Virus record (IMG/VR): IMGVR_UViG_3300027278_000003
DNA length: 64,000 nucleotides
Direction: 5' to 3' (one strand)
Origin: a virus
Taxonomy: Duplodnaviria > Caudoviricetes
The notes below the pieces were generated by a model. That model saw only the letters and a program-made list of their open reading frames with translations. It did no database searches and had not been told where the DNA came from. Positions 56,802 through 59,974 of this stretch are shown in pieces; the stretch's first letter is position 1; every line of letters starts with the position of its first letter. Made by a program: the position numbers and the translations under genes.

Positions 56802-57244
56802 TTGACGAATCATAAAGAATGAACTAAATTATATAAATGTGATGGTCACTGACACAAACCAAAACATCGGGTTGTTCCGTAACGGACACGTGAGAGGTCA
56901 CGGTTAGCTTCTCATTCAGAGTATCCGACAGCGTTAAGGTCGGGCGGGGAGCGTCACTCATTATGATACACGCAAACTGACATTTGGGGAAAAATCTGTC
57001 CCGTGGTGGCGACCACATCTGAAAAAAGTTCTTGACGAATCGGATAAGTTTTGATAAGTTAAGAAAGTTGCGAGAGGGCAAAGGCTAGTAACCAGATGCA
57101 CTCGTAACAAAAAAGAAAAAAAGTTCTTGACAAAGACAAAATAGTTTGTTAGAGTGAGGAACATCAGAAGCGAAACGTGAGTTTCAAAAAAACTTCTGAA
57201 AAAGAAAAAAAGTTCTTGACAAAGACATTAAGTTTTGTTAGAGT
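56802..57244 (+). promoter_or_regulatory. Four tandem sigma70 promoters driving the ncRNA/tRNA locus
   Basis: TTGACG-N17-TAAATT (56802); TTGACG-N17-TAAGTT (57032); TTGACA-N17-TAGAGT (57127 and 57216, duplicated with A-tract UP elements). Confidence 0.75.
56837..57020 (+). ncRNA. Unidentified multi-stem RNA
   Basis: Non-coding; stems GTGATG/CGTCAC, TGAGA/TCTCA, TCCGAC/GTCGGG, GTGGT/ACCAC. Confidence 0.4.
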
Positions 57245-57252
57245 TAGGAACA

Positions 57253-57578
57253 CGCTGTTTGAAAATTTAGAATGTCTTAATCTTCTAGACTTCGGTCGAT
57301 AATGAAGATGGAAACAGATTTTATCTGTTTTCAATTGTGTATTAAGAGCAAAGAAACGTGACAGGTAGGTAGGCTCCTAGGAGTAACGAACCCGTAAAAT
57401 CCTGGTGAGGGACCGAGCGTTGACGAATATGCAATTGTAAACAGAGTTTAAAAACGGCACCTGAGAACGAGTTGCTAGGCAGAAGTTGAACCGTGAAGAT
57501 GGCAGAAGTTCAACTACTCAGTAGAGGGTCACCTATACAAAGCCGTTTTTGTCTATTGCCTGGTGAACAATAGACAAA
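57253..57578 (+). ncRNA. Unidentified structured RNA(s) in the tRNA leader
   Basis: GAC-TTCG-GTC tetraloop, GAAACAGAT/ATCTGTTTT, AAAAACGGC/GCCGTTTTT, AGTTGAAC/GTTCAACT, TTGTCTATTG/CAATAGACAA. Confidence 0.45.
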
Positions 57579-57585
57579 TTTTTAT

Positions 57586-57666: not shown

Positions 57667-57756
57667 GGAGGGGTGGCAGAGTGGTTGATTGCACCGGTCT
57701 TGAAAACCGGCGTAGGCGAAAGTCTACCGTGGGTTCAAATCCCACCCTCTCCGCCA
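57667..57756 (+). tRNA. tRNA-Ser(TGA)
   Basis: CCGGT-CT-TGA-AA-ACCGG, long variable arm, CCA. Confidence 0.95.
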
Positions 57757-57758
57757 AA

Positions 57759-57980
57759 TTGGCCCTTATAGCTCAGTTGGTAGAGCAACGAGGTTATTCA
57801 TGTGAATGTTGTGGTATAAGCGAATGGCAGGGTAAACCAATCGTTTTAGAATGCGATCATATTGATGGCAATCACAAAAACAATACACCTGAAAACTTAC
57901 GATTAATTTGCCCAAATTGTCACAGTCAGACGGAAACCTATAAAAACAAAAACATAGGTAAAGGTAGATCGTATAGATAA
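57759..57980 (+). mobile_element. HNH homing-endonuclease domain/remnant fused in frame to the tRNA fragment
   Basis: RGYSCECCG..W.GKPIVLECDHIDGNHKNN..ENLRLICPNCHSQT. Confidence 0.8.
57762..57787 (+). pseudogene. 5' tRNA fragment (nt 1-26), identical to the start of tRNA-Thr at 58050
   Basis: GCCCTTATAGCTCAGTTGGTAGAGCA is an exact 26-bp direct repeat. Confidence 0.85.
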
Positions 57981-58049
57981 AATTTAAATTTTAGCGTATT
58001 AGGAACAACTTTTCGTTCTAAATGCTAAATAATTATATACGAAGATAAT

Positions 58050-58167
58050 GCCCTTATAGCTCAGTTGGTAGAGCAGTTGATTTGAAAGCACACGCGATAA
58101 CGATAGGTTCACAAGGTGTGTTTTCGTAATCATCAGGTCCGCGGTTCGAGTCCGTGTGAGGGCACCA
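58050..58167 (+). tRNA. tRNA-Thr (TGT, or CGT) interrupted by a 42-nt hairpin in the anticodon loop
   Basis: Acceptor GCCCTTA/TGAGGGC-A-CCA, normal D and T arms; removing 58084-58125 gives a canonical 76-nt tRNA with loop TT-TGT-AA. Confidence 0.8.
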
Positions 58168-58177
58168 TTCTTCTTAT

Positions 58178-58262
58178 GCGGATATGGCGAAATTGGTAGA
58201 CGCACTAGATTTAGGTTCTAGCGGGGTAACTCGTGGGGGTTCAAGTCCCTCTATCCGCACCA
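58178..58262 (+). tRNA. tRNA-Leu(TAG)
   Basis: CTAGA-TT-TAG-GT-TCTAG, variable arm, CCA. Confidence 0.95.
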
Positions 58263-58362
58263 AAAAATTTAATACCTCTGTGTCCAAATCATCATGAAAT
58301 GGTTCACAGTAAATATAAAAATGAAGTTACGCCTTTAATAGAAAGGCAAATTTCAGAAAAGT

Positions 58363-58436
58363 GGGGAATTGGTGAAGCGGGATCACGCTAGATTTGCATT
58401 CTAGAATCACGAGTTCGATTCTCGTATTCTCCACCA
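58363..58436 (+). tRNA. tRNA-Ala(TGC)
   Basis: G3:U70 pair, A73, CTAGA-TT-TGC-AT-TCTAG, CCA. Confidence 0.9.
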
Positions 58437-59366: not shown

Positions 59367-59442
59367 GGGAGATTAGCTCAGTTGGTAGAGCGTCTCGTTT
59401 ACACCGAGAATGTCAGGAGTTCGAGTCTCTTATCTCCCACCA
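59367..59442 (+). tRNA. tRNA-Val(TAC)
   Basis: GGGAGAT/ATCTCCC-A-CCA, TCTCG-TT-TAC-AC-CGAGA. Confidence 0.95.
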
Positions 59443-59757: not shown

Positions 59758-59897
59758 TTAAAGTTTCCAAACGTCAGTTGACGGCGTGACTGTTAGGAGA
59801 GACTAACATTTAAACTACATTTATGTGACGTAACCTTACTTAGAGTATGAAGTGCGTATCACCGAAACTTCCCAAGACATTCTAAATTTTTAAACAC

Positions 59898-59974
<77 letters not shown>

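Follow-up and report, generated by a model that had tools for sequence, protein, structure and literature searches.

A tRNA-HNH fusion in a phage tRNA array is very probably the deletion scar of a free-standing homing-endonuclease gene

HNH genes occur in viral tRNA clusters (PMC6409571). A homing endonuclease of such a cluster is SegB of bacteriophage T4, a free-standing GIY-YIG enzyme that cuts inside tRNA genes and moves the tRNA region along with itself (PMC2330249; PMC2988022). The segB and I-Tev genes of T4 have a late promoter within a hairpin that hides the Shine-Dalgarno (SD) sequence (PMC2988022, PMC2330249). In cyanophage S-PM2, the free-standing nuclease F-CphI adjoins a psbA group I intron; the nuclease is intact, the intron is self-splicing, and both cleavage and protection have been shown (PMC6083498). 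T4 I-TevIII is a defunct phage homing endonuclease (PMC2790892), and it is listed as active only in RB3 (PMC2988022). Interrupted tRNA genes are known from the Lak megaphages, whose enigmatic tRNA introns include one in tRNA-Thr(TGT) (PMC6784885).

The locus described here, in which the 5' end of a tRNA-Thr gene runs in frame into an HNH nuclease core, lies in a 64,000-nt stretch (the window) of IMG/VR virus record IMGVR_UViG_3300027278_000003. The record is 342,181 bp long and about 92% complete and has a major capsid gene of the T4 type; ARAGORN finds 28 tRNAs and a two-piece tmRNA in it. Outside the window, on the reverse strand of G000, ARAGORN placed the two-piece (permuted) tmRNA at 155809-156239 and a tRNA with a CUA anticodon, a possible amber suppressor, at 209371-209445. 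The locus belongs to the second tRNA array (Asn, Ser, Thr, Leu, Ala, Gly, Val, Pro, Asp, Glu) and has the following features:

57667..57756, + strand: tRNA-Ser(UGA), the left neighbour, with an in-frame GTG at 57681 and, ahead of it, a GGAGG (57667-57671) occluded by RNA base pairing
57762..57787, + strand: 5' stub of tRNA-Thr(UGU) copy 1, nt 1-26 of a deleted gene that is whole in L395:51-126
57782..57787, + strand: deletion junction with AGAGCA microhomology, 284 bp lost; L395:71-76 (D-arm) against L395:355-360 (HNH codons 62-64)
57783..57980, + strand: HNH pseudogene, codons 63-127 and stop of a 127-aa zinc-HNH endonuclease linked to tRNA-Thr, with the catalytic and zinc-binding residues of the core intact
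57981..58049, + strand: 69-nt spacer containing a weak hairpin and, at 58024-58031, a late-promoter-like GCTAAATA; it is assigned to tRNA-Thr copy 2, and the HNH-free allele L399 has it as well
58050..58167, + strand: tRNA-Thr(UGU) copy 2, interrupted in the anticodon; minus the insert it is the 76-nt gene of L399
58085..58126 (equivalent register 58084-58125), + strand: 42-nt hairpin insert between anticodon G35 and U36, with relatives in L035 and L239, and in L275 by its stem
58260..58391, + strand: second HNH scar, the C-terminal ~40 codons of an HNH linked to tRNA-Ala, with ACCAAA microhomology to the CCA end of tRNA-Leu and without the catalytic Asp-His
58363..58436, + strand: divergent replacement tRNA-Ala(UGC), overlapping the second HNH remnant

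The surroundings of the array have features of their own. A 26-nt inverted repeat (57253-57278 / 59874-59899; 92% complementary, 2.6 kb apart) brackets most of the array and could form a processing stalk, and the other tRNA array of the genome is preceded by a similar 5' motif. Three tandem sigma70-like promoter repeats with A-tracts occupy 57022-57252, and sister strains have about one unit fewer. Upstream of tRNA-Asn, where the window is short (57445-57580), L385:1720-2195 and L399:1-480 contain long extra non-coding sequence that looks structured and may be a large ncRNA that the window strain has lost or replaced.

A first-pass annotation of this DNA had noted an exact copy of the tRNA-Thr 5' end 288 bp upstream of the gene, leading in frame into an intact zinc-HNH core, and both observations hold. 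The 26-nt repeat (57762-57787 = 58050-58075; offset 288) cannot be extended and has two copies genome-wide, and an uninterrupted reading frame runs from TTG 57759 to a stop whose last base is 57980. The core scores 24.3 bits against Pfam HNH (cut-off 21.4), contains every residue that is invariant in 72 homologs, and has the two Cys pairs, the Asp-His dyad, and the Asn and His metal ligands of a zinc-HNH (beta-beta-alpha-metal) domain. Its best profile matches are PHROG 10822 (E 4e-27) and PHROG 14736 (E 6e-26). Sequence and fold searches returned no close solved structure; the fold neighbours are HNH domains, the best of them at a weak Z of 5.8. In an AlphaFold model of the 73-aa chimera (pLDDT 83), which leans on the homolog alignment, the tRNA-derived residues form a helix; the predicted fold shows only that the core is self-contained. 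Gene callers annotated ORFs of 73 and 99 aa at the locus.

How much of the chimera comes from the tRNA? The peptide LALIAQLVEQR had been assigned to it entirely. The frame is indeed open, but only eight of these residues are specific to the tRNA: Glu-Gln lies in a hexamer shared by both partners, and from Arg-Gly-Tyr onward the sequence is native HNH. The commonest native sequence ahead of the family core ends Leu-Ala-Glu-Gln-Arg, so the last three "tRNA" residues are the enzyme's own.

The origin of the junction is revealed by P0184, a homolog of 127 aa on contig L395 that is identical to the window at 64 of 67 residues over the aligned core. The parent allele is known from L395 alone, a single 659-nt contig from sample ERR514705, which also contains contigs ~97% identical to the flanks of the window. 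Kin in sister strains were located through cluster members and exact look-ups; viral scans with the neighbouring protein and with the spacer found none. L395 carries, in this order, the end of tRNA-Ser, a whole uninterrupted tRNA-Thr(UGU) gene with the same first 26 nt, a promoter/RBS hairpin containing a late-promoter-like motif, GGAGG, and ATG, the HNH gene, the same spacer, and the start of a second tRNA-Thr gene. By alignment and length arithmetic, the window equals L395 minus 284 bp between two AGAGCA hexamers. The comparison shows a parent allele that, as read from this contig, comprised tRNA-Ser, tRNA-Thr copy 1, a late promoter with an RBS-sequestering hairpin, a 127-aa HNH gene, the spacer, and tRNA-Thr copy 2; one 284-bp deletion took from it nt 27-76 of the tRNA, the promoter, SD, and ATG, and 62 codons that include the N-terminal zinc domain and helices. 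The change was clearly a deletion, because an insertion could not have rebuilt a whole tRNA plus a conserved N-terminal domain. The deletion probably arose by microhomology-mediated recombination between the hexamers. The in-frame fusion is a by-product, because AGAGCA, read as the enzyme's own Glu-Gln (GAG-CAA), fixes the frame; the codons ahead of the hexamer are supplied by any conserved D-arm, and the frame does not need selection.

Rather than a working tRNA-nuclease fusion, the locus is very probably what a deletion left of a free-standing HNH homing-endonuclease gene that is now dead. A deletion scar had been one of two options in the first-pass annotation, and L395, the undeleted allele of a sister strain, bears it out directly. 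Two parts of the earlier description give way in the process. The upstream copy is not a tRNA fragment duplicated ahead of the enzyme but what remains of a second complete tRNA-Thr gene, and the tRNA residues do not replace one N-terminal helix, since the loss amounts to 62 of 127 residues and all expression signals. At the orthologous site L395 is filled, L399 lacks the HNH gene, and the window is truncated, which makes the occurrence of the nuclease optional.

Could the junction instead be a mis-join of tRNA and HNH reads? Many short repeats exist in tRNA arrays, but a 6-nt repeat is far below the assembly k-mer size, and the stretch with the repeat and junction is base-identical in five other assemblies, made from different samples with different assemblers; an assembly artefact can practically be dismissed. 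With introns allowed, ARAGORN joins the stub and the far 3' half into one tRNA with a 321-nt "intron", a candidate that was rejected because L395 has two separate genes. What does count against a scar is that the HNH core of the window has not decayed and that the deleted allele is widespread, the neighbouring gene being identical in 63 index blocks; the predicted fold of the chimera, the in-frame GTG behind its SD-like GGAGG, and the annotated ORFs point the same way. The core differs from the L395 parent by 11 synonymous and two non-synonymous codons (pN/pS 0.06). This ratio is no evidence of a live gene, because nearly all of the divergence may be older than the deletion.

The other option in the first-pass annotation was a live element. 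A living chimera would be a 73-aa product from TTG or a 99-aa product from the GTG in tRNA-Ser, cutting DNA with the tRNA-derived helix as a substitute for the native one. In its favour are the open frame with all core residues, a Leu kept at a conserved helix position, the helix predicted by AlphaFold, and the SD-like GGAGG 9 nt upstream of the in-frame GTG 57681 (-9.8 kcal/mol). However, this GGAGG forms the 5' strand of tRNA-Ser, where the predicted precursor has it paired with a probability of about 0.99. tRNA maturation would cleave a message that spans tRNA-Ser. Neither TTG has an SD, the pairing energies being +1.9 kcal/mol before TTG 57759 and -1.5 kcal/mol before TTG 57777. A late-promoter-like motif lies at most 70 nt from the ATG in 46 of 53 intact copies, often in an SD-hiding hairpin, and none was found at the start of the window HNH. 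The promoter, SD, and start codon of the gene itself, present in L395 and most homologs, went with the deletion, as did half of the protein, including the near-invariant zinc domain; against P0184 there is no full-length frame, and the conserved Trp-x-Lys positions of the helix are unmatched. The frame itself was forced by AGAGCA. A live chimeric nuclease is very improbable on these grounds, and the remnant would not be translated at a useful level.

A second scar in the same array serves as an internal control. The segment 58260-58391, 480 bp downstream of the first remnant, is the tail of an HNH from another family; each of its 13 distinct relatives lies upstream of a tRNA-Ala(UGC), and the complete ones have 146-193 aa. 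The remnant starts at the CCA of tRNA-Leu, and ACCAAA is common to the tRNA-Leu end and the Pro-Lys codons of the enzyme. To judge from the homologs, this junction probably arose like the first; no direct parent allele was found for it. At the Ala site, L399 has a canonical tRNA-Ala and no HNH, an empty allele. Without the catalytic Asp-His, the second remnant is certainly dead, yet it is open and conserved. An open frame thus does not show selection, since this non-catalytic remnant is just as open as the first.

What did the intact enzyme do? Longer homologs number 647, listed from 129 aa up. Those parsed, a set selected for length, all have at least 66 residues ahead of the core, and an N-terminal Cys motif is found in 117 of 118. 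The part lost from the window contains four near-invariant Cys and, in the AlphaFold model of a full-length homolog, two strands and a 19-residue helix; it probably acts in DNA recognition. Among 64 distinct viral loci, the HNH gene abuts tRNA-Thr in 36 and tRNA-Gly in 13, and the association with tRNA-Thr has a binomial p of 3e-7, although the loci are not independent. The link to homing endonucleases of phage tRNA clusters that had been drawn earlier is correct. At many family loci, a complete, divergent tRNA is accompanied by a stub from a tRNA of the same amino acid, either its 5' part upstream or its 3' part downstream. In an unrelated phage (L007/L142), the identical 26-nt stub stands ahead of a replacement tRNA-Thr and an intact HNH.

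Most likely, the parent enzyme worked like SegB but with a tRNA-specific target. The intact enzyme would be a homing endonuclease that cuts tRNA-Thr genes around the junction of the D-arm and anticodon arm, and it would spread with a replacement tRNA whose sequence escapes cutting. The stubs and the chimeric-looking copy 1 of L395 place the breaks near tRNA nt 16-36. Immunity through a non-canonical D-arm was considered and is not established: the D-arm is canonical in 4 of 39 HNH-adjacent and 4 of 17 other Thr genes (p 0.23). A literature search found no paper giving the target or activity of this HNH family and, with partial coverage, no account of the stub-HNH-tRNA layout. Full-length family members also occur in two cultured phages, Synechococcus phage DSL-LC03 (L380) and the T5-like phage HdH2 (L381); in HdH2 the gene abuts tRNA-Thr and offers a laboratory system for target testing.

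Cassettes of this kind are found intact in sister strains. At the tRNA-Val site of L399, a 23-nt stub that matches the tRNA-Val of the window exactly is followed by a promoter and an intact HNH of the family, with a new tRNA-Val behind them. In L391-L393, an intact HNH and a new tRNA-Val are accompanied by a 3' stub with the sequence of the window allele. Nuclease-plus-replacement-tRNA cassettes are therefore polymorphic in the phage population, and they would spread, by analogy with SegB, through cutting of the resident tRNA gene. The two HNH and replacement tRNA-Val cassettes, in L391-L393 and at L399:1941-2586 (orthologous to window 59367-59442), are different from each other, and in the L399 replacement the anticodon has changed from UAC to CAC. 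At L391:765-1201, orthologous to window 59898, a gene for an Endo VII-type nuclease lies between a tRNA-Pro 5' stub and a replacement tRNA-Pro, so that a different nuclease family is used in a cassette of identical design.

The 42-nt hairpin in the anticodon of tRNA-Thr copy 2 (z -3.4) raises a separate question. Its removal yields exactly the 76-nt gene of L399, the empty allele, so it is a precise polymorphic insertion. No Thr tRNA gene other than copy 2 was detected in the genome record. After the deletion the insert interrupts the sole gene of this kind, which would therefore be either spliced or dispensable. Pattern scans found 44 distinct clean inserts at the same anticodon position, although the position is dictated by the pattern and some hits may reflect rearrangements of another kind. 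Three relatives (L035, L239, L275) have the same stem, end in A, and fix the register at 35/36; in an alignment of only four sequences, 93% of the cells in the stem pair and one pair is changed on both sides. When genome contigs were scanned with the insert core, the three hits fell in a coding gene and were discarded as chance matches. No Rfam intron matches the insert, and a 42-nt single hairpin lacks the features of a group I tRNA intron, which has a ribozyme core of about 200 nt or more and ends in G. The last two bases of the insert are able to pair with U34-G35, and staggered cuts would free the hairpin with a 2-nt 3' overhang. Such an overhang is the product geometry of RNase III, and the ends suit T4-type RNA ligase 1. 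The phage encodes a T4-type RNA ligase beside a P-loop kinase; neither RtcB nor RNase III was found in its record.

Other inserts in tRNA-Thr genes look different. Those of L245, L278, L284, and L352 can be read as an acceptor stem, alone or combined with a T-arm, that ends in NCCA if the insert is placed at 34/35. They form a different class from the window hairpin, and those of L278 and L284 follow immediately after intact HNH genes of the family. Unrelated hairpins of 28-33 nt occupy the same position of tRNA-Thr(UGU) in L200, L201, L205, L206, L208, L213, L214, and L218, many of them with a 2-3-nt 3' overhang.

Did the insert protect the gene from the enzyme? Self-immunity by the hairpin had been proposed in the first-pass annotation, and the survey of other genomes gives the result that the annotation itself had named as refuting it. 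A family HNH adjoins 2 of the 43 other genes with an insert and 2 of the 77 intronless control genes (Fisher p 0.62; flank lengths vary), a pair of counts without the co-occurrence expected of a collaborative homing pair. There is no HNH beside the three closest inserts within the available flanking DNA, and no insert-bearing Thr gene in 80 HNH-centred loci. Intact enzymes stand alongside uninterrupted tRNA genes in L077, L085, L151, L229, and L395, the last being the parent allele. The insert is not the usual self-protection of this HNH family.

Past collaborative homing at this one locus, which would be compatible with a scar, is a different matter. The intact parent HNH would have cut the common uninterrupted allele of copy 2, with a different anticodon stem protecting copy 1 and the insert protecting copy 2; enzyme and insert would have spread together, and the enzyme would then have been deleted. 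Within the phage group, the two fully informative alleles are concordant, the window having the HNH remnant and the insert, and L399 having neither at this site but two uninterrupted Thr genes with the common anticodon arm; two alleles, however, carry no statistical weight. L395 terminates exactly at the insertion point, as a branch between alleles might cause. Its copy 1 looks chimeric at nt 27/28: it differs from copy 2 only past nt 27, with two stem mismatches across that boundary, and its acceptor 3' strand is found in 0 of 34 control genes that share the 5' end, which hints at an exchange next to the insert. In L278 and L284 an intact family HNH occurs together with a tRNA-Thr that carries an insert, and F-CphI with the psbA intron provides a precedent (PMC6083498). 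Set against these points are the survey above and the next-closest enzyme, P0185 (82%), which adjoins an uninterrupted gene with the same anticodon arm and another D-arm. On balance, past collaborative homing is possible but unlikely. In its specific form, P0184 would have cut the uninterrupted copy 2 next to the anticodon, and a hairpin removed by proteins, because it is too small for self-splicing, would have protected the gene and spread with the enzyme; this version is doubtful. If true, it would be collaborative homing with a protein-spliced phage tRNA mini-intron, explaining how such inserts move, and the deletion, by leaving the insert-bearing gene as the sole Thr tRNA, would have set up a natural test of insert splicing.

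Under the preferred reading, that of a deletion scar, the tRNA-HNH fusion is debris and of little weight alone. Its interest lies in the three sister alleles, with no HNH, an intact HNH, and a deleted HNH, which together with the Val, Pro, and Ala sites document cassette gain and loss in one natural phage population. They also supply reagents for questions of HNH target and insert splicing, namely intact P0184 and insert-plus and insert-minus alleles of an otherwise identical gene. A caution follows for annotation: conserved tRNA D-arms yield chance open frames, which gene callers annotate.

How does the locus compare with the described systems? Like SegB, the intact parent is a free-standing nuclease gene among phage tRNAs, with a late promoter in an SD-hiding hairpin. 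In contrast to SegB, which recognizes a T-loop motif of many tRNAs, the family consists of zinc-HNH enzymes found mostly at Thr or Gly genes; it travels with a replacement tRNA and leaves stubs, and the window copy is truncated. As with F-CphI, a free-standing nuclease adjoins an insertion that could interrupt its target, whereas here the nuclease is truncated, Rfam has no match for the 42-nt insert, and the survey across genomes shows no association between the two. In the window and the Lak phages alike, a tRNA-Thr(UGU) of a large phage is interrupted in the anticodon loop, and relatives have empty alleles; compared by description only, the Lak Thr intron is tRNA-like and the window insert a plain hairpin. 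As with I-TevIII, a homing-endonuclease gene is dead in one phage and intact in a relative. I-TevIII sits in a group I intron, whereas the HNH gene of the window was free-standing, and its deletion also destroyed the adjoining tRNA gene.
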